From contig JAPLLR010000043.1 in the NCBI GenBank assembly GCA_026387455.1, forward strand, positions 9,683 through 73,682: a DNA stretch of 64,000 nucleotides, written 5' to 3'. Position numbers and translations under genes: made by a program. Positions within the stretch are counted from its first letter, which is position 1. Each line of letters opens with the position of its first letter. Under the pieces are notes generated by a model. It worked only from the letters and a program-made list of their open reading frames with translations, made no database searches and was not told the origin of the DNA. Below are positions 4,199 through 63,202 of this stretch, piece after piece. The stretch is from Candidatus Omnitrophota bacterium. GTDB taxonomy: Bacteria; Omnitrophota; Gorgyraeia; Gygaellales; Profunditerraquicolaceae.

Positions 4199-4717
4199 AT
4201 GGATGTTTTAGAAATTCTCAAAAGCAGAAGAAGCGTCAGGCAATACTCAGAAGAGCAGATATCAAAAGAATTTTTGGAGAAGATTGTTGATGCGGCCAGG
4301 TTTTCCCCTACTGCCAGAAATGTCCAGCCGTGGGAGTTTATTGTGATCACTCAAGCGCCTATTTTAAAAAAGCTTGGTGATTTAGCGGAGAACGCAAGAT
4401 TTCTAGCCCAGGCAAAAGCCTGTATCGCGGTATTTTGCGCTGATACAAAATATTATTTGGAAGATGGATGCGCCGCAACCTGTAATATTCTGCTTGCCGC
4501 GACTGCTCTGGGCGTTGGTTCCTGCTGGGTTGCCGGAGATAAGAAACTTTATTGCGAGGAAGTAGCTAAATTATTAAATGTACCTGTCACCTATAAATTG
4601 GTGAGCCTGGTGGCTTTAGGCTACCCTAAGTCCAAAGAAAGTTTCCATATCGCGCAAAAGAGAGGCCTGAAAGAAGTGATTCATTGGGAGAAATTGAAGG
4701 ATGGAAAAAGAGAATAA
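4199..4717 (+). CDS. Nitroreductase family protein
   Basis: RRSVRQY...ARFSPTARNVQPWEFIVI signature of the NfsA/NfsB-type nitroreductase fold; SD GGAGCGAAAGAG upstream. Confidence 0.8.
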   Translation: MDVLEILKSRRSVRQYSEEQISKEFLEKIVDAARFSPTARNVQPWEFIVITQAPILKKLGDLAENARFLAQAKACIAVFCADTKYYLEDGCAATCNILLAATALGVGSCWVAGDKKLYCEEVAKLLNVPVTYKLVSLVALGYPKSKESFHIAQKRGLKEVIHWEKLKDGKRE

Positions 4718-5480
4718 GGCAGTAGATAAAATTATACTTGTAGCACTTGTATTTGTAGGACTAATTCTGGCGATCCATGTTTTGTTGGTAAGGATGTATC
4801 AGGGCCTAATGCGCCTTGACTATTATAATGCTTCCTGTCTGTCAGGCATTACTATCCTTGTTTTCTTTTATGCCGCTATAAAGTTCAGTAAACCGCTGGA
4901 GCATCAAATCGTTAATTTTGTCTATTTTAAAGATAAACGGCATTATAAAACGCTGTTAGACGAGTCGATCCGCGATGGTTTGACCGGTTTGTTTGGTCAT
5001 AAATATTTTATGCAAAAGCTTGAAGAGGAGGTGGAGCGCTCTAAGAAGAGCCTAAGTCCGCTTTCGCTACTGATGATAGACATAGATTATTTCAAGAAAT
5101 TTAACGATACTTTTGGCCACCTTGAGGGTGATATGATCTTGACGGAACTCGCAGCTATGTTCAAGCGCTTTCGCAGGGAACAAGTCGATCTAGCCGCCCG
5201 CTATGGAGGGGAAGAGTTTGTCATACTGCTTCCGGAAACGTCCAAAGAAAACGCGAAGATTCTGGCTGAGGAATTGCTCAATCACGCAAAGAAAATCAAT
5301 ACCAGTAAGGGCGTGGTCACCATAAGCATCGGCATTGGTTGCTTTGACGGCAACAGTAAAGATTTTGCTAAAGAAGATCTGATCAGGATCTCAGACGCTG
5401 CGCTTTACCGCGCCAAAGCAGCGGGAAGGGATCGCGTGGAGATTCAAAGGGAGAGCGAGAAGGATGTATGCGAAGAATAA
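4701..5480 (+). CDS. Membrane-anchored GGDEF-domain diguanylate cyclase
   Basis: Two to three N-terminal TM helices, then DGLTGLFGHKYF, DIDYFKKFNDTFGH and the RYGGEEF active-site motif. Confidence 0.85.
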   Translation: MEKENKAVDKIILVALVFVGLILAIHVLLVRMYQGLMRLDYYNASCLSGITILVFFYAAIKFSKPLEHQIVNFVYFKDKRHYKTLLDESIRDGLTGLFGHKYFMQKLEEEVERSKKSLSPLSLLMIDIDYFKKFNDTFGHLEGDMILTELAAMFKRFRREQVDLAARYGGEEFVILLPETSKENAKILAEELLNHAKKINTSKGVVTISIGIGCFDGNSKDFAKEDLIRISDAALYRAKAAGRDRVEIQRESEKDVCEE

Positions 5481-6271
5481 TCAGTCTTATAGCATTGGCA
5501 GTTTTTTTTACGGTTATTCTTTGTCAGGCCTGTGAGCCTGAGCTCAAGGTGCTTAAGATCGAGCACGGGAGCGCGCAATCATTGTTTGAAGTGGCGAATA
5601 GCTTGAAAAGTGAGCAAGGCAAGGTAAGCTTTGACCAGAACTCCAACAGCCTGATCGTGTTTGATTGTCCGGAGAATATTTTGCGTATTGCCCAGGTGAT
5701 CAAGGGCATAGATATCCGGGAAAAGCAGGTCGAGATCAAAGTCCTGGTCATAGAGGCCAGCGAAAGATTCCTGGAGAATATCGGGGTTAGTTACAGTCAG
5801 GTCATTATCCCTCAGGGAAAGTTTATGGCGATTACGGAGCTGATCAAGGAAAGTAAAGAGGCCAGCACCCGTACTAGCATGATGGTCCGGACTTTGAGTA
5901 ATCGTCCGGCAGTGCTGCAGGTCACTACTGACGAGGTGATCGGTACCGAATTCGTGATATTCAGCAATGGTACGGAGATCACAACACCTGTAAGAGAGCC
6001 GATAGGCAGCATGTTGGAAGTATTGCCTACTGTGAATAACGATGGCTCGATTAATGTGGTCTTAAGGCCAACGGTCAACAGCATGGAGAAGCACGGCACT
6101 CCTTCTGAGAGGTCGATAATAACCCAGGTAGTGCTTAATGACGGAGATACTGTCGCAATAGGTGGAGCTCTGGTCCAAAAGGGGCGCTCCAAGAAAGGGC
6201 TTTTGTCAGGAAAATCCAGCGAGGAGAATAAGAAAGTGGAGATGTTTCTGACCGCTAAAATTGTTGATTAA
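5468..6271 (+). CDS. Minimal secretin-like outer-membrane protein (secretin N domain plus a short secretin core)
   Basis: Signal peptide; an N-domain-like segment (LKVLKIEHGSAQSL...IVFDCPENILRIAQVIKGID), then a secretin-core-like segment (QVEIKVLVIEASERFLENIGVSY...VEMFLTAKIV) that resembles PilQ/GspD C-terminal regions; only 267 aa. Confidence 0.5.
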   Translation: MRRIISLIALAVFFTVILCQACEPELKVLKIEHGSAQSLFEVANSLKSEQGKVSFDQNSNSLIVFDCPENILRIAQVIKGIDIREKQVEIKVLVIEASERFLENIGVSYSQVIIPQGKFMAITELIKESKEASTRTSMMVRTLSNRPAVLQVTTDEVIGTEFVIFSNGTEITTPVREPIGSMLEVLPTVNNDGSINVVLRPTVNSMEKHGTPSERSIITQVVLNDGDTVAIGGALVQKGRSKKGLLSGKSSEENKKVEMFLTAKIVD

Positions 6272-6325: not shown

Positions 6326-9300
6326 ATGATTATCAAAGATTTGATTTTAGTTGACGAATTAACCGGGCATTATAACCGCAGGGGTTTTCGTGAGAGCATC
6401 GGACAGATACTTTCACTTCCCCATGGCGCTGCCAAATCCTTTTATCTTATCCTTACCGATTTAGACCATTTTAAAGATATTAATGACACCTACGGCCACT
6501 TAAGCGGAGACTTCGTGCTTAAGGAATTCGCGGCGCTTTTGGAGCGCGGATTACAGAATACCGAAGCGGTAATTGCCCGCTACGGCGGCGATGAATTTGT
6601 GGCGATTCTAAAAAACTGCAATAGGCAAAATGTAAGCGTCATCTGGGACAAGATACGGCGGGATGTTGCCAATAAAGAATTTATCCTCCCTGGTTCCAAG
6701 CAGAGCCTGCGTCTGACCATGAGCATAGGGATCGTGGAATTCCCTCAGGATGGGTTAACCCAGGAAGAACTGTTAGCTAAAGCCGATGAAGCCCTGTATT
6801 CATCAAAGAGGCTCGGTAAAAACAAACTCACCTTTGCCAACGAGATCCTTGTCCAGACCAAAGAAGAAAAAAGGATCCAAAAGAATATTGCTGAGCCGCC
6901 GTTTGTTGACCGGGCAAACGAATTAGCCGAGATCCAGAAGTTTATTTTTGGAGGGAAAAGCTATAAGCTTATTATCATAAATGGTGAGGTGGGCTGCGGT
7001 AAAAGCCGTATGCTCCAGGAGGTATCCATCCGGGCAAAGGCAAGGAACCTAAAAACATTCTTTCTTGTCTGCGGCGAACAGCAGAAAGAAAAGCCTTACA
7101 GTCTGCTGGAAGATATCATAGGTAGCCTTGTTTACGAGCATGTCGAAATATGCCAAAAGGCGGTGTTCGATCTTCCGCCGAAATTAAAAACCGCGCTCTC
7201 CGCATTACCAAAATTAAAAAGATTATTTGTGCCTCATCTTCATGTGACCCATTGGGATGCCGAGGTGAGGCTAAATCTATTCCACGGGCTCGCAGACCTT
7301 TGTGAAAGCATATTCACCCAGATAAATCCGCTTATTATCGTGGACAATCTCGATTGGATCGATGCCGCAAGCTCAGAAATATTAAGTTTCATAATCCTGT
7401 CTAAGAAACAGACTCCTTTTGTCTTATTAGGAAGCACCAGCCGCCCGGCTTCAAAAACGCACGATAGCGATTCAGCTCTTGATGCGTTGTTGTCGGAGAT
7501 CTCGGAGTTTGAGATTGTGCCTCACATAGCCCTGCCGTTTTTTAATCAGGCAGAGACCGAAGAAGTCGTAAAGGGGATTTTTAGCGGCCATGATATACCT
7601 GAAAAATTCACCAGCGAGTTCTTCGGCGCTACCGAAGGCAACCCCTTTTTCATTGTCGAGTTAATACAATACCTTTGGGACAGGAAAAACATTTATCTGC
7701 AATATCCTCATTGGATATTTCAAATTGACACAAGCCGGCTTCCGAGGGATTTAAGGGAGCTGCTTATCAGCAAGCTGCAAAACCTAGGGGCCGAAGAAAA
7801 GGAATTGCTTCTGGCTGTTTCCGGCATAGGGAGCAACCTTAAGTTTGATTTCCTTTCCAAGCTTAAAAAGATAAACCACGGGCACTTGCAGGATATCCTT
7901 TCCCGCATCTCAGAAAAAAATATCCTAAAGCTCGGAGAAAATCAGGTCGAAGATGAGGTTTTCTTCAATAACGATTCCCTGCGCTCGGTTCTTTATGAGA
8001 GTATCGATACTGAGAAGAAAAAGAAGATCCACCTTGATATTGCTACCACTCTTGAGCATGAATTCAAGAATAATACCGAAGAGATAAGCTCGGAGCTGGC
8101 CTTCCATTTCAACAAGGCAAATCTTGAAGCTAAGACAAAAAACTATGCCCAGCAGGCGGTCGTCTATATCGAAAACCTTTTTTCAAACGCTGAGGCGGAA
8201 AAGGTCATCGAAAATGCCATTAACGACCGGGAAGAGAAGGAGCGCCATGAGCCGATAAAAAAAGATACCTGGCCGCTGATAATGGAGATCATTAGCTCTT
8301 TTAATTCAGCGATAAAAAGTATGCAGATGTACCAGATGCCTAATGAGATCACCACAAAGATGGTCTATAGCCTAGCCAGATGTTTGGAAGAATTTTTTAC
8401 GGCCTACCATATACTTACCTTTAGCTGTCCGTCCGGAGATATCAAGCTTTTGATAAACGGGCAGGAATTGCATCTGCCATCCCATTCGGAAGATATGTTT
8501 ACAAAGACCATTCTTGCCATTATGAACATGGCTAATATCGGAAGCATTACTTTTCATCGCACTGTTTCGGCTAATGAGATCAAGGCATTTATCGGCCTTC
8601 TTTCTAATCCCAAACTATCGATGGAAAAAAAGGAACAATGGAAAAAGATCCTCCTTGATTATAAGATCAACGCCATAAATATCGATGAGGTGCTCTACAA
8701 AAAAGTCTATTCCGAAGAAGAAAAAAGGCAGTTGCATAAGGAATTCATCAAAGAATTCATGATAAAAAGAGCTATCGGAGAGGCTGTTCCTCTGCCGAAG
8801 GAAGGTGGCGCTAAGGTTGGTGACGAGAAAGAAGAGACCAAGGTCATCAAAAAAATAAAGGTTTTCGATGAAGCGGAAACAGACCTTTTTGCTAAAACCA
8901 TCTCCCATTTTTCGCCGGACGTGCTAGTGGAGGTAATTACTGATGAATACCGCCGTCATATAACAGCGATCTTGGATATCAGGGAAATGGTCAAGGTGTG
9001 CCTGAAAGACTCCCAACAAAAAGAAACAATCGCCGTAAAATTGAAAGATGCCCTAATAAAGTTGGGGATGTCGGATGTCTGCTTTGCGTGGCTTATCGAT
9101 AGTCATGATTTTCTGCACTATCCTGTGATCAAGAGGGCCAACACATATTTGAATGCTGATTCCGGAACTATTCTTGCTATGGGGGTTATAGAAAATCTTA
9201 AACCCACCCTTAATGAACTTTTTGTAATAAATGAAAGCGCTCTTGCAGAACAGATCTTGGATAAATATCTTCTGAATTTACAAAGCAGCGAGCTGGAAGC

Positions 9301-10213
9301 AAAGATATATACGGCCGTAACCTTGCCGGAGATCATAAAGATCATTCCCGCGCACCTTGCGGATTTCTACGTGAAAAGAATCACCGCTCTTTTTCTTCAG
9401 GCGCTTCATGTTGAAAATGATCAGCAAGCTTATGAATCGCTTGCGATGGATGCGGGGGCTATTATTTCTCGCTTACAGGAACTCAGCAATTATTGGGATA
9501 TCTATAGGGTTATCTCTACGCTAAAAGAAGATCTTAATGCTTCAGGAGGGCTTGTCTGGAGGAGGCAATTGGCTAAGGAAGCCTTGAAAGGAATAGACAT
9601 ATTTTCTCTGTGCGCTCAGCTAGCAAGTATTCTTGATGAAGTCGCCTTTGATGCCAGCAAGAATGCCTTAGTTATCTCTCTCTTTAAGAAGATGATGCCG
9701 GAAGGGATCCTTTATTTTATTGAGACATTAGAAACAAGGCAATCGAGCACCCTGCTTTTCGAATGGTACCTGCAGAACCTGGAATTACTGGATATACTCA
9801 AGGAATTTAAAACCGAAACCGTGCCTTTCATAGAAATGCTTATTGATTCAGGGGCACAGAAAAGGGTATTGCTTGCTTTAGATATAATGGAAAGGATAAA
9901 TGATGAACAGCAACTTCCTCTTTATGAAAAAGCTATTCAAAGCAATGACCTGGAGATTAAAAGAAATTATTTTCGATCGCTTATTCAGATGAATACAGAA
10001 AGCGCTTTTTCAATGATAAAAAGATTATTTCCCAGACAGGACCCCGAGACACAGCGGGATATTGTCATAGATATGGGGGTGTATGGGAGCAGAAAAGAGA
10101 TGAGTGAGTTTTTGAAAAGCCTGCTTGACCAGAAAATTTATGGGTTAGGCCGAAAAGAAATACTTTTGTACATTGATAAAATTAATACTTGCCTATCTCA
10201 TAAAGGGAAGTAG
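6326..10213 (+). CDS. Large multidomain signalling protein: N-terminal GGDEF domain, P-loop NTPase (AAA_16/STAND-like), and about 850 aa of helical (HEAT/TPR-like) repeats
   Basis: LTGHYNRRGF, DLDHFKDINDTYGH and RYGGDEF motifs in residues 1-170; Walker A GEVGCGKS and Walker B LIIVDNLDWID; long C-terminal helical region. Confidence 0.8.
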   Translation: MIIKDLILVDELTGHYNRRGFRESIGQILSLPHGAAKSFYLILTDLDHFKDINDTYGHLSGDFVLKEFAALLERGLQNTEAVIARYGGDEFVAILKNCNRQNVSVIWDKIRRDVANKEFILPGSKQSLRLTMSIGIVEFPQDGLTQEELLAKADEALYSSKRLGKNKLTFANEILVQTKEEKRIQKNIAEPPFVDRANELAEIQKFIFGGKSYKLIIINGEVGCGKSRMLQEVSIRAKARNLKTFFLVCGEQQKEKPYSLLEDIIGSLVYEHVEICQKAVFDLPPKLKTALSALPKLKRLFVPHLHVTHWDAEVRLNLFHGLADLCESIFTQINPLIIVDNLDWIDAASSEILSFIILSKKQTPFVLLGSTSRPASKTHDSDSALDALLSEISEFEIVPHIALPFFNQAETEEVVKGIFSGHDIPEKFTSEFFGATEGNPFFIVELIQYLWDRKNIYLQYPHWIFQIDTSRLPRDLRELLISKLQNLGAEEKELLLAVSGIGSNLKFDFLSKLKKINHGHLQDILSRISEKNILKLGENQVEDEVFFNNDSLRSVLYESIDTEKKKKIHLDIATTLEHEFKNNTEEISSELAFHFNKANLEAKTKNYAQQAVVYIENLFSNAEAEKVIENAINDREEKERHEPIKKDTWPLIMEIISSFNSAIKSMQMYQMPNEITTKMVYSLARCLEEFFTAYHILTFSCPSGDIKLLINGQELHLPSHSEDMFTKTILAIMNMANIGSITFHRTVSANEIKAFIGLLSNPKLSMEKKEQWKKILLDYKINAINIDEVLYKKVYSEEEKRQLHKEFIKEFMIKRAIGEAVPLPKEGGAKVGDEKEETKVIKKIKVFDEAETDLFAKTISHFSPDVLVEVITDEYRRHITAILDIREMVKVCLKDSQQKETIAVKLKDALIKLGMSDVCFAWLIDSHDFLHYPVIKRANTYLNADSGTILAMGVIENLKPTLNELFVINESALAEQILDKYLLNLQSSELEAKIYTAVTLPEIIKIIPAHLADFYVKRITALFLQALHVENDQQAYESLAMDAGAIISRLQELSNYWDIYRVISTLKEDLNASGGLVWRRQLAKEALKGIDIFSLCAQLASILDEVAFDASKNALVISLFKKMMPEGILYFIETLETRQSSTLLFEWYLQNLELLDILKEFKTETVPFIEMLIDSGAQKRVLLALDIMERINDEQQLPLYEKAIQSNDLEIKRNYFRSLIQMNTESAFSMIKRLFPRQDPETQRDIVIDMGVYGSRKEMSEFLKSLLDQKIYGLGRKEILLYIDKINTCLSHKGK

Positions 10214-10223
10214 GGGAGATGGA

Positions 10224-10865
10224 ATGATGAAAAAAACGATTCCTATTATGATTGCGGCGATGCTGTTGACAGTAACGGCATTTGCACAAGAGGCAAAGAC
10301 TATTCAGTTACCCAAGCCGAATATGAGCGGCGGGAAACCCCTAATGCAAGCGCTTAAAGAGCGCAAAAGTGTCCGTGAATTCAGCTCTAAGGAACTTACG
10401 CCGCAGGTTTTGTCGGACATGCTCTGGGCGGCAAACGGGATCAATCGTCCTGAGTTAGGATATCGCACCGCTCCCAGCGCCCATAACGCGCAGGAGATCG
10501 ATATCTATGCCGTGTTATCAGACGGGTTGTATTTATTTGATGCTTTGGCGCATGAGCTAAAGTTGATCGCGTCGGGAGACCTACGCGGCCTTACAGGTAA
10601 ACAGCCTTTTGTTAAAGAGGCAGCGGTTAATTTGATCTATGTCGCAACACTTTCTAAATTGGGAAACGCGTCCAGCGAAGACGCGGCTTTTTATGCGGCT
10701 ACTGATGCAGGATTTGTCAGCGAAAACGTGTATTTGTATTGTGCTTCAGCAGGTTTAGCTACTGTCGTGCGGGGGTGGGTGGATAAGACAGCTTTGGGAA
10801 AAGTGATGAAGCTAAGGCCAGATCAAAAGGTGATCCTTGCGCAAACCGTAGGCTATCCGAAATAA
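10224..10865 (+). CDS. Secreted SagB-type nitroreductase-family protein
   Basis: Signal peptide MMKKTIPIMIAAMLLTVTAFA; KSVREFSSKELTPQVLSDMLWAANGINRPE...APSAHNAQEID as in SagB/ThcOx-type dehydrogenases. Start moved to the ATG at 10224, which has an SD GGGGAGATGG (the ORF track starts at 10173, inside the previous gene). Confidence 0.7.
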   Translation: MMKKTIPIMIAAMLLTVTAFAQEAKTIQLPKPNMSGGKPLMQALKERKSVREFSSKELTPQVLSDMLWAANGINRPELGYRTAPSAHNAQEIDIYAVLSDGLYLFDALAHELKLIASGDLRGLTGKQPFVKEAAVNLIYVATLSKLGNASSEDAAFYAATDAGFVSENVYLYCASAGLATVVRGWVDKTALGKVMKLRPDQKVILAQTVGYPK

Positions 10866-57044: not shown

Positions 57045-57245
57045 ATGGCAAAGTTAATGGACATAGATGAATTGGCCGACTATCTTCGCTTAAAGAAGCA
57101 GACTATTTATAATTGGCTGCATCAACGCAAGATTACCGGGATAAAGGTCGGAGGCGTCTGGAGATTTGAGCATAAAGAAGTTGACAATTGGCTCAAAAGC
57201 AAGAGGCGCTTATCCAAGGACCAAAAATCTGGAGATAAACAATGA
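57045..57245 (+). CDS. Excisionase-family (HTH_17 / MerR-superfamily) DNA-binding protein
   Basis: IDELADYLRLKKQTIYNWLHQRKITGIKVGGVWRF; stop overlaps the pilM start (ATGA). Confidence 0.7.
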   Translation: MAKLMDIDELADYLRLKKQTIYNWLHQRKITGIKVGGVWRFEHKEVDNWLKSKRRLSKDQKSGDKQ

Positions 57246-58792
57246 GTTCATTAGGTATCTATTTCGGGCCCAAGGTCATTAGTGTAGTAGAAACCGGCAA
57301 TAAGAAGCTTATCGCTAACACCCAGCTGTTGCAATCGACAGTCGCGACCGGAGAGCTGGGAGAAAAGGTTCCGACCGAGCTTAAGACTATTGAGATTGTA
57401 GCGCTCTTTAAGGATGAGTTGCGCAGAAATAAGATCAATGCCAAAGAGGCTACGCTTAGCCTTTCCGGAAAGGACCTGATCATCCGCAATTTTGATATCC
57501 CTGTCTTGCCGCGTGAGGAGATAGGTAGTGCCATTACTTTTGAGGCGAAGAAGTATATTCCTTTTAAGATGGAAGAACTGGTTTCTGATTATCAGCTAGA
57601 GCTTGATAAGGTCAACAAGAGGAATCAAGTCCTTTTCATGGGTATCAAGAAAGAGGCTCTTGAGCGTTACCTTACTATAACTAGCGAGTTGGGCATCAAG
57701 GTTCTGTCTATAGAGTATTCGGCGTTTAGCCTTATCCGGGCGCTGGGGCTATCGGGTATTAGCGATAAGGGCATTGTCGGTATTGTCTGCGCCGACCTTA
57801 AGGGCGAAGATGAGGTCAACTTTACCGTACTTGAGAATGGTTTTCCGGTTTTTAGCCGGGATATCACCTTAGCCGGCGGGCCCGATGAGTTCAGCCGGGG
57901 TGCTGAGTCGGATGTAGGTATGGCTATGGAAAAGATTAAGACCGAGATCCGCGTGTCTTTAGATTATTACCACCGTAAGTTCCCGGCCAAGAACATCCAG
58001 AAGTTATTCCTTATTTCAAATCCCGAGCATCGTTCTGAGCTGGAGGCTTCAGTAATCGATACTGGCCTTTCAGCGCAGTTTCTCGATCTGTCTAAGTATT
58101 TCGGAAAGCCAGTGCAATTCGATTCTAACTTCGTCAAGGGGTTTACTACGTCCCTTGCACCTGCGATCCGCAGTGGTATCAAGTTAAACCTTTTGGCGGC
58201 TCGCGCGCGTAAACAAGCGGGATCGGCCAAAATCGGACAAGTAGATGTGGCAACGCTTTTTAAAGGGCTAAAAATAAACTCGCTGGTGATTGTGTTGGGG
58301 GTAGCGATATGCGCCGGGGTGATCATTTACGGCCAGACTCAGACCAAGCCCCTGAAGGAAGAATTGGCTCAGGTAATCAGTAAGCAGGTAAAAGTTGCTT
58401 CGGTAAATCCTGGCGCCACTATTGATGAGATGCGCGATGTGGATAAAAAGTTCAAAACCCGCCTTAAGGAACTTGACACGCTGGTAAAAAAGCAGCTTTA
58501 TCTGACCCAGCCGCTTGATGTGATACCGCGGGTGATCCCGGACGGGGTGTGGCTGACTGACTTTACTTTCAAAAAAGATAAGGGCGATGGGGACCTGCAG
58601 CTTAGTGGTTTAGCAGACATGGGTGATGGTGAGAAGGAGTTTGAGGCGGTTAATAAATTCATTGCCAGCCTTAAAGAGAACCCGAACTTCACCAAGTATT
58701 TTACTAATATTAAACTTTTGGTGCTTGATCGTGCAGAGAGTGGAGACGCAGTGAACATGACGGCGTTCTCTATTTCCTGTAAAACTAATTAA
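57242..58792 (+). CDS. pilM: Type IV pilus assembly protein, PilM-PilN fusion
   Basis: Actin-like PilM region (about 330 aa), then a TM helix (LVIVLGVAICAGVII) and a PilN-like periplasmic domain. Confidence 0.75.
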   Translation: MSSLGIYFGPKVISVVETGNKKLIANTQLLQSTVATGELGEKVPTELKTIEIVALFKDELRRNKINAKEATLSLSGKDLIIRNFDIPVLPREEIGSAITFEAKKYIPFKMEELVSDYQLELDKVNKRNQVLFMGIKKEALERYLTITSELGIKVLSIEYSAFSLIRALGLSGISDKGIVGIVCADLKGEDEVNFTVLENGFPVFSRDITLAGGPDEFSRGAESDVGMAMEKIKTEIRVSLDYYHRKFPAKNIQKLFLISNPEHRSELEASVIDTGLSAQFLDLSKYFGKPVQFDSNFVKGFTTSLAPAIRSGIKLNLLAARARKQAGSAKIGQVDVATLFKGLKINSLVIVLGVAICAGVIIYGQTQTKPLKEELAQVISKQVKVASVNPGATIDEMRDVDKKFKTRLKELDTLVKKQLYLTQPLDVIPRVIPDGVWLTDFTFKKDKGDGDLQLSGLADMGDGEKEFEAVNKFIASLKENPNFTKYFTNIKLLVLDRAESGDAVNMTAFSISCKTN

Positions 58793-58805
58793 AGGGATAA
58801 ATACT

Positions 58806-59318
58806 ATGGGATCAGACCAGGCAAATAAAAACAAGAACTTAGTACTGAATCTTATCGTCGTTGTCATTGCCGGCGTTGTCGCTTTTAATCTTTATCAGAA
58901 AAATGAGCAGGCCAAGAAGAAGCTCTCAGGCAATATTAAAGAGGAGCAGGAGAAGTCTCAGGTGCTGGAGGGGATTGACCAGTCAGAGAAGACTATGGCC
59001 GCTTATCGTAAGCTTCTAAGTAAAAAAGACACCAACCTGGTCATGGCGTCAATCACTAATATGGCTAAGGAATTCGGTATCCGGGTGGTCACTGTCAAGC
59101 CGGTGCCGGAGGTAAGATTAAATGAATTCATCAGGACGCCCTTTGTTCTAACAGTAGCTCCTCTTAGTTACCATGCGTTGGGTAAATTCATCAGCGCTAT
59201 AGAGAGCGCTCAGGATGTTTATGTGGTGGATTCGGTTGAGATCAAAACAGGCCAAGAGGGAGAGCCCGGCAAGCTTATGGCTAATGTAACTATCACCTCC
59301 ATAGCGCTGGCAGAATAA
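58806..59318 (+). CDS. pilO: Type IV pilus assembly protein PilO-like
   Basis: N-terminal TM, coiled coil, C-terminal domain; position after pilMN. Confidence 0.6.
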   Translation: MGSDQANKNKNLVLNLIVVVIAGVVAFNLYQKNEQAKKKLSGNIKEEQEKSQVLEGIDQSEKTMAAYRKLLSKKDTNLVMASITNMAKEFGIRVVTVKPVPEVRLNEFIRTPFVLTVAPLSYHALGKFISAIESAQDVYVVDSVEIKTGQEGEPGKLMANVTITSIALAE

Positions 59319-59322
59319 AATT

Positions 59323-59766
59323 ATGAGAATAACTAAATATTGTTTATTGTTTTTGGTGATCCTCCTAAATACGGTTTTTTCTGTGGTTTGTTTTGCGCAG
59401 ATCTTTGAGGGCGCTGATAAAACTGTTTCGGGATCATCGCCGGATCAACTCTTACGGCCTAAGGTCGATTATTCGGCTCAAGGGTTACGCGATCCCTTTA
59501 TGGGTAAAGAGGGAAAGTCCGGGACAGGCGAGGTTTCTAGCCCCGTAGATAAGAAGCCTTTGCCGGCGCTTACGGTGCAAGGGGTCATTTGGGGAGGGAA
59601 TTTTCCGCAGGCGATCATCAATAATAAGGTTTTAAAAGTTGGGGATACGATAGAAGGTGTCAAGATAAAGTCTATTGCCAAGGAAGGCATAATTGTCTTA
59701 TTCGAAGGGTCAGAATCAATTATCTCATCACCGGCTGCTGGATCCGGCGCCGGAACCAGTTCTTAA
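59323..59766 (+). CDS. pilP: PilP-like secreted protein
   Basis: Signal peptide; C-terminal beta-domain pattern VQGVIWGG...NNKVLKVGDTIEGVKIKSIAKEGIIVLFEG. Confidence 0.55.
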   Translation: MRITKYCLLFLVILLNTVFSVVCFAQIFEGADKTVSGSSPDQLLRPKVDYSAQGLRDPFMGKEGKSGTGEVSSPVDKKPLPALTVQGVIWGGNFPQAIINNKVLKVGDTIEGVKIKSIAKEGIIVLFEGSESIISSPAAGSGAGTSS

Positions 59767-59827
59767 CACCCCAATACCCCCAAACTTAATGGATAGTTTG
59801 GGGTGAGCTTGTGCTCAAGGAGGTTAC

Positions 59828-61462
59828 ATGAAATCTTATCTAAGGTCAGGGCTAATTATTTTCTTGCTCGCTATGTTCATGCCTGTATCAAGGTTGTCAG
59901 CCGATGCCTCGCTTCCGCGGCCTGATGTTGAGCCGGCTATCTCTATGGATTTTCAGGACGCTAACCTTAAGGATGTCCTTAAAGTATTTTCTATCCAGTC
60001 GGGAATGAATTTCCTTGCCAATGAAGGTGTTCAAGATAGGAAAGTCACCCTCTATATGGATAAGGTTCCCTTGAGTGAGGCGATGGATAATCTGTTTAAG
60101 GCTAATAATCTTTCCTATAATATGGATCAGCAGGCCAGGATTTTTGTGGTTAAGGATTGGGGAAAGCCGACAGTTGAGACAGTGACCAAGATTTTTTTCC
60201 TTAAGAACGCCTCAGTATCTTCTTCTTCCATAAAGGAAGAAATGAGTGCTGGTCTGACCGGCGGGATAACAGCTGACTTTGATCCGAGTGCCGTATCATC
60301 TTCCACTGCCACCAGCTCAACGTCAGATAGCGGTTCTAGTTCTAGCTCAGGAAAATGGAAGGTAGAGGAGGAGTCAGGGATCACCTATGCCATTAAGAAG
60401 ATCCTTTCTACTAATGGCTCATTGATTGAAGACTACCGCACAAATAGCCTTATTGTCACTGATATCCCTAGCCGCATGGAAGTGATCATGCAGGTCGTGG
60501 CTACGCTGGATATTCCAGTGGCGCAGGTATTGCTGGAAGTAGAGATGCTGGATGTGTCTAAGAACGTAGTGGATCAGCTGGGTGTACAGTGGCCGACGAC
60601 TTTAGCAAGCTTGACTGTTTCCGGTTCCAAGGTGACATCATTTCCTTTTGGGGACAAGATTGGCACAAGCCCTCAAGGCGGGGAAATTGTTCCTGGCCCC
60701 AACCAGTTTGGTGGAGGTTGGGATTTTCCTAGTTGGGGAGCTGCACACTTTGGGCCTTCAATCTTTACCCTTATCGGCAGTACTTTGACTTTTGATTTTC
60801 TGACTACGCAAACCGATACTAAGATCTTGGCGCGTCCGCGGGTAATGACTTTGAATAATGAGACCGCAGAGATAAGGATTGCCGTAAAGGAATCTATTGG
60901 ACAGGACACTTCGACCACTTCAACAGGCGGTACGGGAAATACGACTAGTGCGGCAGAGCGTTATTGGACCGGCGTCATTCTTCGGGTTAGTCCTCAGATC
61001 AATGTGGATGCAGGAGAAATAACGCTTTTTGTTTATCCGAGTGTAGCTACCTCCCAAGTAGGAAATACTATTATTGTGAATGGCGAAACTAATACATACA
61101 GGGATCCAGAAGTAAGAAGCACCAAGCAGACGGTTAAGCTTAAAGACGGAGAGACTATTGTTATCGGTGGTCTGATCCGTAATGATAGCCAGACCGTGGT
61201 CAGCAAGCTTCCTATTCTGGGAGATATTCCTTTTATTGGCGCAGCTTTCAGGCACAAGTCTCAGACCCCCGGCAAAGAGCGCGAGCTGTTGGTGTTTATC
61301 ACACCACATATCATTCGTGACGTAAAGCCTTCTGAAGTTGCGCAGGGGCCTAAACCGATGAGAGCGGCAAGAGCGGTGATGTCTCAGAGAGAACAAGGTG
61401 AGGCTGTTGTAGTGAACAGACAGGCTTCCATCAATAAATATATCAGCAACTACGAGAAATAA
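59828..61462 (+). CDS. pilQ: Type IV pilus / T2SS secretin
   Basis: Signal peptide, N-domains, Ser/Thr-rich linker, secretin core ending KLPILGDIPFIGAAFRHKSQT...ELLVFITPHIIRD. Confidence 0.9.
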   Translation: MKSYLRSGLIIFLLAMFMPVSRLSADASLPRPDVEPAISMDFQDANLKDVLKVFSIQSGMNFLANEGVQDRKVTLYMDKVPLSEAMDNLFKANNLSYNMDQQARIFVVKDWGKPTVETVTKIFFLKNASVSSSSIKEEMSAGLTGGITADFDPSAVSSSTATSSTSDSGSSSSSGKWKVEEESGITYAIKKILSTNGSLIEDYRTNSLIVTDIPSRMEVIMQVVATLDIPVAQVLLEVEMLDVSKNVVDQLGVQWPTTLASLTVSGSKVTSFPFGDKIGTSPQGGEIVPGPNQFGGGWDFPSWGAAHFGPSIFTLIGSTLTFDFLTTQTDTKILARPRVMTLNNETAEIRIAVKESIGQDTSTTSTGGTGNTTSAAERYWTGVILRVSPQINVDAGEITLFVYPSVATSQVGNTIIVNGETNTYRDPEVRSTKQTVKLKDGETIVIGGLIRNDSQTVVSKLPILGDIPFIGAAFRHKSQTPGKERELLVFITPHIIRDVKPSEVAQGPKPMRAARAVMSQREQGEAVVVNRQASINKYISNYEK

Positions 61463-61483
61463 GGCCCTGCGGAAAACTTTCTT

Positions 61484-63202
61484 ATGGCCAAAGAGAAGTA
61501 TCTTAGATTAGGTGAGCTTTTGGTGCAGGAAAGCCTTATCAGCGCGGACCAGCTGGAAAAAGCCATAAGCACGCAGCGGCAGGAGGGTGGCCGCCTCGGT
61601 GAGATCGTGGTGAAGTTGGGGCTGGTGAAAGAAGACCAGCTAGTGGCGGTTCTCGGCCGGCAGCTGAATATCCCATATTTTTCGCTTGGAACCGGGATGC
61701 TTAAGCCCGCCAATGATCAGGGCCTTGAGCGTTTGATCCCGCAGGAATTCGCCATAAAGAATTCAGTTCTTGCGCTGTCCCGTACACTCAAATCCCTTAC
61801 CGTTGCATTAGCAGATCCCCTAGATTTAATCCTCTTAGATAATTTGCGTAAACTTACAGGTTGCGAAGTAAATGCGGTTGTGGCCACTAAGTCTGATATT
61901 GCCAAGGCGGTAGCGGATTTCTACGGCAAGTCCGCTATGCTTAAGGATGCGGTGGATGCCAGCTATGATGTCACTTCCTTTGAGTTCTCTCCCGAGGCGG
62001 ATGTATCCGGCCAGGAGCTAAGCCTGGATAAAATGATCGCCCGCGCGGAAGAGGCGCCGGTAGTAAAATTAGTGGATTTGGTTATTCATCAGGCCATTGA
62101 TGAACGCGCGTCCGATATTCATATCGAGCCGTTTAAGGACAGGATAAACTTACGCTATCGCATAGACGGGAAGCTTTATGAGATCCCCCCGCCGGCAAAG
62201 CATATGCATATGGCAATCATTTCGCGTATTAAGATTCTTTCCAAGTTAGATATAGCTGAAAAGCGCCTTCCTCAGGACGGCGCTTTTATGGTGAAGATGG
62301 AAAATCTTCCCGTAGACATCCGTGTTTCGACAATTCCGACAATTTACGGCGAGAAAGTGGTAATGCGCCTTTTGAATCGCAGTCAGGTAGTGCTGGATTT
62401 AGCTAGAATGGGGTTTGAGCCAAAACAGTTAGAGGATATGCGTAAATCCATCAATGCCCCCTATGGTCTGGTGTTCTTGACTGGGCCCACAGGTAGTGGA
62501 AAGACTACTACGCTTTACGCCATGCTTAATGAGATCAAAAGCCCATCGAAAAATATTATTACTGTCGAAGATCCCGTGGAGTATAAATTGGAGGGGATCA
62601 ATCAGGTTCAGATTAAGCCTGAGATAGGCCTTACTTTTGCAGCGAGCCTGCGCAGCTTTCTGCGTCAGGATCCTGACGTCATGCTGGTAGGCGAGGTGCG
62701 CGATTTAGAGACTGCGCAGATCTGTATCCGCTCAGCGCTTACGGGCCACTTGGTGTTAAGTACTTTACATACAAATGATGCTTCTTCGGCGGTCACCCGT
62801 CTCATGGATATAGGTATCGAGTCTTACATGCTTGCTCCTTCCATAGTATGTGTTGTGGCCCAGCGTCTGCTGCGTAAGATTTGTCCTGAGTGTAAGGAAG
62901 CATACGAGCCTACCCCTGAGCAGCTTAAGCATGTCAAATTGAAGGCAGAATTGATTTATCGGGCCAAAGGCTGCCCAAAGTGTAATCAATTAGGGTACAA
63001 GGGAAGGACTTGTATAGGCGAGGTGATGGTGGTCAATGCCCAGATACAGGAGCTGATCAACCAGAAGGCTTCCTTTCAGAGGATCAGGGAAGTGGCTCGC
63101 GCCGCCGGAATGCAGACATTGTATGAATCAGGATTGCGCAAGGTGGAAGAGGGTATCACTTCTTTAGAAGAAGCGCTTTCCGTTACTATAGGAGCTGAAT
63201 AA
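61484..63202 (+). CDS. pilB: Type IV pilus assembly ATPase (GspE/PilB family) with an N-terminal MshEN c-di-GMP-binding domain
   Basis: Two 24-residue MshEN motifs (RLGELLVQESLISADQLEKAISTQ and RLGEIVVKLGLVKEDQLVAVLGRQ); Walker A GPTGSGKTTT; tetracysteine motif CPEC...CPKC. Confidence 0.92.
   Translation: MAKEKYLRLGELLVQESLISADQLEKAISTQRQEGGRLGEIVVKLGLVKEDQLVAVLGRQLNIPYFSLGTGMLKPANDQGLERLIPQEFAIKNSVLALSRTLKSLTVALADPLDLILLDNLRKLTGCEVNAVVATKSDIAKAVADFYGKSAMLKDAVDASYDVTSFEFSPEADVSGQELSLDKMIARAEEAPVVKLVDLVIHQAIDERASDIHIEPFKDRINLRYRIDGKLYEIPPPAKHMHMAIISRIKILSKLDIAEKRLPQDGAFMVKMENLPVDIRVSTIPTIYGEKVVMRLLNRSQVVLDLARMGFEPKQLEDMRKSINAPYGLVFLTGPTGSGKTTTLYAMLNEIKSPSKNIITVEDPVEYKLEGINQVQIKPEIGLTFAASLRSFLRQDPDVMLVGEVRDLETAQICIRSALTGHLVLSTLHTNDASSAVTRLMDIGIESYMLAPSIVCVVAQRLLRKICPECKEAYEPTPEQLKHVKLKAELIYRAKGCPKCNQLGYKGRTCIGEVMVVNAQIQELINQKASFQRIREVARAAGMQTLYESGLRKVEEGITSLEEALSVTIGAE

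Follow-up and report, generated by a model that had tools for sequence, protein, structure and literature searches.

A short secretin-family protein of Omnitrophota without the β-lip and with a truncated amphipathic helical loop

Secretins provide the common outer-membrane exit of type II and type III secretion, type IV pili, competence systems and filamentous phage, and their BAM-free insertion is usually explained by two elements, the β-lip and an amphipathic helical loop (AHL). A stretch of Candidatus Omnitrophota DNA (contig JAPLLR010000043.1; the whole 64,000 nucleotides analysed are called the window below, with positions counted from the first letter) encodes at 5468-6271 a secretin-like protein of 267 residues, here called the short secretin. 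Is it an intact secretin, which parts of the canonical architecture has it kept, and what could it do with them? The alignments and the structural model described below indicate a natural protein of ~27 kDa that has an N3-type domain, both barrels and Gate 1 but neither insertion element, which bears on the usual explanation of insertion: either a pore can work without the lip and the AHL, or the gate of a secretin can serve at a distance from the membrane. The unusual architecture and the conservation of the family are the solid finding; from them we infer a function and a relationship to the membrane.

The gene and its family

The gene itself is described by the open reading frame (ORF) list, the sequence, Pfam, homologues and the ratio of non-synonymous to synonymous substitution rates (dN/dS):

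5468-6271, + strand: short secretin gene, ATG start, 267 aa, stop codon included

The C terminus, read from the ORF translation, is …KKVEMFLTAKIVD. Two Pfam profiles match above their gathering scores. Secretin (PF00263; 44.1 bits, cut-off 27.5) covers residues 127-239; it is matched over profile positions 3-127 of 169 only, because the AHL region is missing. Secretin_N (PF03958) scores 38.8 bits against 28.2 and covers residues 27-87, directly before the secretin domain. An earlier, sequence-only reading of this DNA had proposed a minimal secretin and named alignment to these two profiles as the check, and both scores agree with it. The NCBIfam matches (PilQ, GspD, SctC, HofQ and MshL) all lie below threshold. 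PilQ is the best of them (TIGR02515, 74.8 bits against a cut-off of 284), GspD reaches 69.4 bits against 351 (TIGR02517), and the short secretin falls outside each of the equivalog models for PilQ, GspD, SctC and MshL.

A search of 5.8 billion proteins returned 33 homologue clusters at 40-94% identity, all with both Pfam domains and all 267-289 aa long, save one N-terminally truncated entry of 235 aa; in their source databases they are named ‘secretin N-terminal domain-containing protein’ or ‘GspD/PulD’ and come from Candidatus Omnitrophota. Exhaustive searching of 1.84 billion 50%-identity representatives with the family profile added ~70 proteins, 250-310 aa long and matching it from end to end, the named members being from Omnitrophota and from two metagenome-assembled genomes (MAGs) of Verrucomicrobiota. 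When one genome per GTDB species was scanned, the family was present at three loci only, and the other secretin relatives found there (n=77) were 312-1171 aa long where the ORF was complete, nearly all exceeding 440 aa.

Comparison with the 94%-identical orthologue gave a dN/dS of 0.086. The gene has no in-frame continuation on either side, with a complete GGDEF gene upstream and a new GGDEF gene starting at 6326 downstream, and six-frame translation of the window revealed PilQ at 59828 as the sole other secretin-like ORF. The constant length across ~100 clusters, the low dN/dS and the lack of a secretin-like frame nearby rule out a fragment or frameshift; the sequence-only reading, too, had seen no in-frame continuation next to the gene. 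By these measures the gene is real, intact and conserved, and encodes a functional member of a distinct subfamily of the secretin superfamily that is under purifying selection. It is the smallest kind of secretin-family protein found in our analysis. Database names for the family are automatic only, and full-text literature searches on secretins of Omnitrophota or Omnitrophica and on short, minimal or truncated secretins returned no description of it.

Retained fold and missing elements

The final AlphaFold run, a monomer modelled with a 68-sequence alignment, gave a predicted local distance difference test (pLDDT) score of 89.9 and a predicted template modelling (pTM) score of 0.74; it replaced a mediocre run with 34 sequences (pLDDT 74.9). 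The top 40 Foldseek matches in the PDB are all secretins (GspD, PilQ, InvG, pIV, BfpB and RcpA; probability 1.0), with TM-scores of up to 0.59 when normalised to the query and 0.61 when normalised to pIV, and the sequence profile of the family matches PDB chains of GspD, PilQ, BfpB, pIV and InvG with E down to 1e-27. Taken with the two Pfam scores, these secretin-only matches bear out the secretin core that had been proposed. The model begins with a signal-peptide helix and a βαββα N-domain (residues 25-81), continues through a strand (87-98), a short helix and a helix at 116-128, and ends in long β-hairpins with strands at 132-143, 148-164/170-189, 195-206, 212-223, 228-241 and 250-266. The elements of the protein are as follows:

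5468-5530, + strand: signal peptide, residues 1-21 (MRR, a 14-residue hydrophobic core and CQA↓C), read from the sequence, with inferred cleavage site; helix 2-18 in the model
5540-5725, + strand: N3-type ring-building domain (βαββα), residues 25-86; Pfam Secretin_N, pLDDT 95-98, probable Cys22-Cys67 disulfide
5726-5761, + strand: first outer-barrel strand, residues 87-98 (QVEIKVLVIEAS), from the HMM alignment to M13 pIV
5762-5812, + strand: tight turn in the position of the β-lip, residues 99-115 (ERFLENIGVSYSQVIIP), from alignment counts
5813-5851, + strand: helix leading into the inner barrel, residues 116-128, from the AlphaFold model and aligned to the equivalent segment of pIV and PilQ
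5909-6034, + strand: Gate 1 hairpin and inner-barrel strands, residues 148-189 (model strands 148-164 and 170-189)
6050-6136, + strand: second inner-barrel hairpin with shortened Gate 2, residues 195-223, from the alignment to pIV (Arg215 at pIV Arg337)
6164-6223, + strand: AHL remnant, residues 233-252 (GALVQKGRSKKGLLSGKSSE), short, Lys/Ser-rich and hydrophilic; the part of the model with the lowest pLDDT
6224-6268, + strand: last outer-barrel strand, residues 253-267 (…KKVEMFLTAKIVD; model strand 250-266), at which the protein ends with no S domain

The retained parts can be followed residue by residue. In profile alignments the N domain aligns to N1/N3 of XcpQ and to the N domain of PilQ. 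Glu96 aligns with Glu185 of pIV and is Glu or Asp in all 34 members compared, and Arg215 aligns with Arg337; in pIV, for which the structural elements and Gate 1 hinges have been defined, Glu185 and Arg337 form the inter-barrel salt bridge (PMC8563730). Gly180, invariant in 68/68 sequences, aligns with the second Gate 1 hinge, pIV Gly297 (PMC8563730), and the Gate 1 segment has 28 residues, against 31 in pIV and 22-46 in other secretins. At the first hinge the family has Thr, Ser or Ala in place of glycine; we dropped the loss of this glycine as a special feature because the window’s PilQ also lacks it. The motif MFLT in the last strand is nearly invariant across the family. On sequence and model, the short secretin is a secretin-fold protein with one N3 domain, a double-barrel core, an intact Gate 1 and a short Gate 2.

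Export is suggested by the N terminus, where the n-h-c form of the signal peptide, read from the sequence, and the single Secretin_N match agree with the signal peptide and one N-domain that the sequence-only reading had named. Cys22 (5531-5533) and Cys67 (5666-5668) covary perfectly: all 17 sequences with Cys22, among 34 compared, carry Cys67, and the remaining family sequences have neither, except one N-terminally truncated entry. The pair probably forms a subgroup-specific disulfide tying the mature N terminus to the N-domain, which would imply cleavage before Cys22 and an oxidising periplasm. Cys19 occurs in only 17/34 sequences and is preceded by Leu or Phe at −1, so that a lipobox and a lipoprotein are unlikely. 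Together these residues point to Sec-dependent export to the periplasm and a mature form of ~246 aa.

For the missing parts, 78 other secretins were aligned to the family profile and residues were counted between fixed anchors. These comparators comprised the GTDB-scan secretins of diverse phyla, four multi-N-domain secretins from the profile search, the window’s PilQ and M13 pIV. The β-lip segment (G106..F119) has 14 residues in the short secretin and in three GTDB family members, against 26-93 (median about 51) in the comparators, 67 in the window’s PilQ and 39 in pIV. Segment 99-115 is 17 residues long in 61/68 family members, and the β-lip is absent in all 68. In the β-lip alignment, the family has zero insert residues where other secretins have 12-79, which indicates a clean excision. 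Gate 2 has 15 residues, as in most of the family, compared with 18-28 in nearly all comparators.

The AHL is also reduced. Its segment (233-259) has 27 residues here and 19-36 across the 68 members, most often 33-34, against 41 in nearly all comparators and 37 in pIV. The motif vPxLGDIPxLGxLF is reduced to its first half (vPfxG) in the longer family members and to GLLSGK in the window’s subgroup, and the best 9-residue Kyte-Doolittle window in the segment scores -0.33 here (family median 0.77), against at least 1.06 in the comparators (n=78, median 1.45). A regular-expression search for the AHL motif in all six frames of the window found it in PilQ only, and a split secretin whose AHL is supplied by another ORF of the window was rejected on this result. 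Beyond the last strand the short secretin and its family have 2 residues, the comparators up to 72, and the N0 and S domains are absent. As judged from the alignments, the shortness has three causes: a single N3-type domain without N0 or S, an excised β-lip and a cut AHL. It therefore goes beyond the shedding of optional periplasmic domains and includes the canonical membrane-insertion elements. The β-lip has been described as the major membrane-spanning region of secretins, with the hydrophobic rim limited to lip and AHL and the AHL, present in all solved secretins, as their most conserved part (PMC6532946); the AHL has further been called the signature of the secretin family and essential for membrane insertion (PMC8134430). 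The earlier suggestion of a stripped-down outer-membrane pore calls for a qualification, given that the β-lip and most of the AHL, by which canonical secretins insert into the outer membrane, are among the parts lost. Shortness alone does not define the lip-less family: a secretin of 312-361 aa, depending on the start codon, in a Gemmatimonadota MAG chromosome (CP070758.1; locus L034, 5914-6852) has a lip of 42 and an AHL of 41 residues.

Among known secretins, PilQ (the window’s own and that of V. cholerae, PDB 6W6M) likewise has its N-domain directly before the double barrel. The likeness extends to the Gate 1 sequence and a C-terminal strand of the form GG…(L/M)(V/F)(F/L)(I/L)T, and PilQ is the best NCBIfam match and a top Foldseek match; unlike PilQ, the short secretin has no STN/N0, AMIN or C-terminal tail and lies outside the pil cluster. 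It differs from GspD in having a single N domain in place of the N0-N3 array, no S domain and no gsp neighbours. With pIV of f1/M13 (PDB 7OFH), one of the smallest secretins whose structure is solved, it shares the secretin core (TM-score of 0.61 normalised to pIV), the absence of an S domain, and the conserved salt-bridge Glu/Arg pair and second Gate 1 hinge Gly. However, the 405 aa of mature pIV include N0 and N3, an extracellular lip of 36 residues and the AHL motif in full (VPFLSKIPLIGLLF), whereas the short secretin, with ~246 mature residues, has no N0, lip or complete AHL motif and a non-phage context.

The same N3 + C architecture has been built experimentally in PulD 28-42/259-660 (N3 + C + S), which multimerises and inserts (PMC4604470), although that construct retains the full β-lip, AHL and S domain, all three of which the short secretin has lost. 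Mitochondrial GspD/GspDL, from the mitochondrial type II secretion system (miT2SS) of some protists, has been reduced differently: it has no N domains and retains the AHL, whereas the bacterial family described here (PVC group) keeps N3 and the first outer strand and has a degraded AHL. The Tad secretin RcpA/CpaC is also short; it has one N-domain in the periplasm, and its minimal lip, a coil-turn-coil, lies flush with the barrel (PMC10499894). Its N-domain, however, is VirB9-like, its AHL is conserved, its S domain binds the pilotin TadD and its gene lies in a tad operon; RcpA is a much weaker fold match (Foldseek E = 2e-5, TM 0.30), and the family sequence profile searched against the PDB gave no match to it. 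The short secretin is homologous to the PilQ/GspD-type secretins and would work most like them; it has the domains and fold of the secretin superfamily but lacks two of its structural signatures, the β-lip and the AHL.

Genomic setting

Gene context was compared over 11 independent genomic contexts. In the window, the short secretin gene overlaps the stop of an upstream gene for a 259-aa GGDEF protein (4701-5480) by 13 nt and is followed, after a 54-nt spacer, by a gene for a 1295-aa protein (6326-10213, + strand). In this protein a GGDEF domain at the N terminus is followed by an AAA_16/NACHT-like STAND ATPase and, at the C terminus, a HEAT-like region; orthologues of 1295-1298 aa are encoded at loci L005 and L092. 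The order GGDEF-secretin-GGDEF recurs only at L092, the locus of the orthologue with 94% identity. L093 (77% identity) has no GGDEF flank: the orthologue there is bordered by a gene for an unrelated 511-aa product, which is encoded upstream and gave no BLAST match to the 1295-aa GGDEF protein, and by an RF-1-domain gene. At L005 (73%) the 1295-aa GGDEF gene lies 4 kb upstream with six genes between, and SIR2 and a GMP-synthase-like gene adjoin the orthologue; at L006 (64%) it is flanked by PTA and SIMPL. More distant members adjoin NYN, TilS-like, TPR, GH77, DUF4126, DUF456, GGACT or ParA-like genes. No gene for type II secretion (T2SS), type IV pili (T4P), Tad, a pilotin or phage is adjacent in any of the 11 contexts, nor is any neighbour fixed over them. 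Unannotated small membrane ORFs beside the gene at L001 and L002 have no homology to each other or to the window, and a conserved small partner gene was rejected on that ground. Judged by gene order, the short secretin is an orphan gene.

Genes of cyclic di-GMP (c-di-GMP) signalling, encoding GGDEF or PilZ domains, occur within about 3 kb in four or five of the 11 contexts, never with a fixed position or order:

4701-5480 and 6326-10213, window
4759-5478 and 9899-10279, L001
5934-6503, L006
3004-3480, L009

This is an apparent, loose association that we leave unexplained. Practically every credible ORF of at least 120 aa in the window (1-64000) lies on the + strand, minus-strand ORFs being mostly shadows inside + strand genes, and related Omnitrophota loci have a likewise co-directional, overlapping gene packing.

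The full PilQ at 59828 that had been named beside the short secretin is confirmed as a 544-aa protein with STN, Secretin_N and Secretin domains and no AMIN domain. It belongs to a complete module:

57242-63202, + strand: type IV pilus module with a PilM-PilN fusion, PilO, a protein in the position of PilP, PilQ and a PilB-type ATPase

The PilM-PilN fusion has 516 aa, the PilP-position protein has 147 aa with a T2SSB match just below threshold, and the PilB-type ATPase carries an MshEN domain. The pil cluster lies 54 kb from the short secretin gene, and pil genes occur in none of the 11 contexts. Because this module is complete and has its own PilQ, the short secretin is not the secretin of that machine. 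The two proteins are 25% identical, with a lip of 14 against 67 residues, a Gate 2 of 15 against 27 and an AHL of 27 against 42, which makes an in-register mixed ring unlikely.

Proposed working and rival readings

With moderate confidence, we favour a reading in which the short secretin forms an exported, gated secretin-type ring with a shallow or partner-aided association with the outer membrane, as an orphan tied neither to the cyclases nor to the pilus. The protein would be exported via Sec to the periplasm and cleaved before Cys22, and the mature form would self-assemble into a gated ring of 12-15 subunits, as do all solved secretins and the engineered N3+C core of PulD; by this analogy a homo-oligomer of that size is most likely. 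For PulD, N3+C(+S) suffices for assembly (PMC4604470), and heavily truncated mitochondrial GspD still oligomerises and forms membrane pores (PMC8134430). With the β-lip replaced by a turn and the AHL truncated and hydrophilic, such a ring would be unable to insert canonically and would associate with the outer membrane shallowly or through a partner; with N0 absent, it would also lack the usual docking on a GspC/PilP-type inner-membrane platform.

Several observations weigh against this proposal. In place of the lip, the turn (…GVSYSQVIIP…) still has a tip of moderate hydrophobicity (best Kyte-Doolittle window 1.18), and the AHL remnant of 20/68 members is as hydrophobic as the least hydrophobic canonical AHL, which gives a shallow autonomous insertion some probability. 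Lip length varies widely among secretins (26-93), the lip of RcpA is a mere coil-turn-coil (PMC10499894), and the family could lie at the far end of a continuous range. A ring, its place in the cell and its gating would follow by analogy, the structural model itself being a monomer, and the analysis yielded no substrate or partner machine for the short secretin.

The chief rival, possible but rather unlikely in our view, is an autonomous minimal outer-membrane pore that inserts itself by the hydrophobic tip of its shortened barrel and provides the exit channel for a machine of the type II/IV-filament kind, or for traffic of DNA or protein, with its genes elsewhere in the genome. An intact Gate 1 and secretin core, a conserved QVIIP tip of moderate hydrophobicity and the natural variation in lip length (PMC10499894) would suit such a pore, as would the assembly and insertion of engineered N3+C PulD (PMC4604470) and the membrane pores made by strongly truncated mitochondrial GspD (PMC8134430). 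The mitochondrial protein, however, retains the AHL that the short secretin lacks; the lip, the major membrane-spanning region (PMC6532946), is absent in 68/68 members, there is no N0 for coupling to a platform, and T2SS, T4P or Tad genes adjoin the gene in 0/11 contexts. We consider it improbable that the protein assists or modulates the full-length PilQ, as the decoy or regulator suggested by the sequence-only reading, or some other secretin, whether in mixed rings or as a second periplasmic gate stacked beneath the ring. PulD is known to form mixed multimers of its full-length and truncated forms (PMC4604470), a complete PilQ is encoded in the same genome and is the best NCBIfam match, and Gate 1 is PilQ-like, neither protein having the first hinge glycine; but the two are 25% identical, with length differences of 53 residues in the lip, 12 in Gate 2 and 15 in the AHL, and the gene, 54 kb from the pil cluster, never adjoins pil genes in the other contexts.

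Synteny decides against a third possibility, raised by the sequence-only reading, in which the short secretin and its two flanking GGDEF proteins form a small export apparatus controlled by c-di-GMP. The 13-nt overlap upstream, the 1295-aa GGDEF-STAND gene close downstream, the same arrangement at L092 and the PilZ/GGDEF genes within about 3 kb at L001, L006 and L009 would fit it, but the flanking arrangement is confined to the 94% orthologue, being lost at L093 (77%), dispersed at L005 (73%) and gone at 64% and beyond; no c-di-GMP gene has a fixed position or orientation, and overlapping co-directional genes are usual in these compact genomes. Coupling to the cyclases is on this comparison largely refuted, and we regard the apparatus as very improbable. 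We give still less credence to a pseudogene or fragment, or to a pIV-like secretin of a filamentous prophage. Short length and a match to PHROG 1012 (M13 protein IV; E = 3.7e-16) would fit, but ~100 clusters of constant length, a dN/dS of 0.086 and the lack of secretin-like flanking frames speak against decay. A prophage origin is practically ruled out, as the best PHROG 1012 stretch covers residues 27-109 only (the N-domain and first strand), phage genes are present in no context and the neighbours in the window are housekeeping genes.

Taken further than the gated ring that we favour, the loss of both insertion elements tentatively suggests a new functional class, which we think less likely than the ring itself: gated secretin-fold rings that do not traverse the outer membrane alone and act either as gates of their own, in the periplasm or beneath the membrane, or as the inner half of an outer-membrane channel of two components, whose membrane part is an unrelated protein. 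If a ring without a pore were true, it would be the first case of a secretin gate uncoupled from a secretin pore. The short secretin would also be the smallest natural scaffold for studies of secretin assembly and gating, and possibly for nanopore engineering, and it points to an uncharacterised component of the envelope in two uncultured or little-studied groups, Omnitrophota and Verrucomicrobiota.

The profile search also returned secretins of much greater length. P0061, P0114 and P0142 are 1000-1600 aa secretins with ~10-15 N-domain repeats and Pro/Ala-rich linkers between them; they have a short lip of 26 residues and a complete AHL and stand between canonical secretins and the lip-less family. 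In giant secretins of 3000-5500 aa (P0035, P0073, P0091, P0106, P0119 and others), 16-32 Secretin_N-like stretches precede a normal secretin domain; P0035, with 3491 aa, combines a full lip of 61 residues with a normal AHL.

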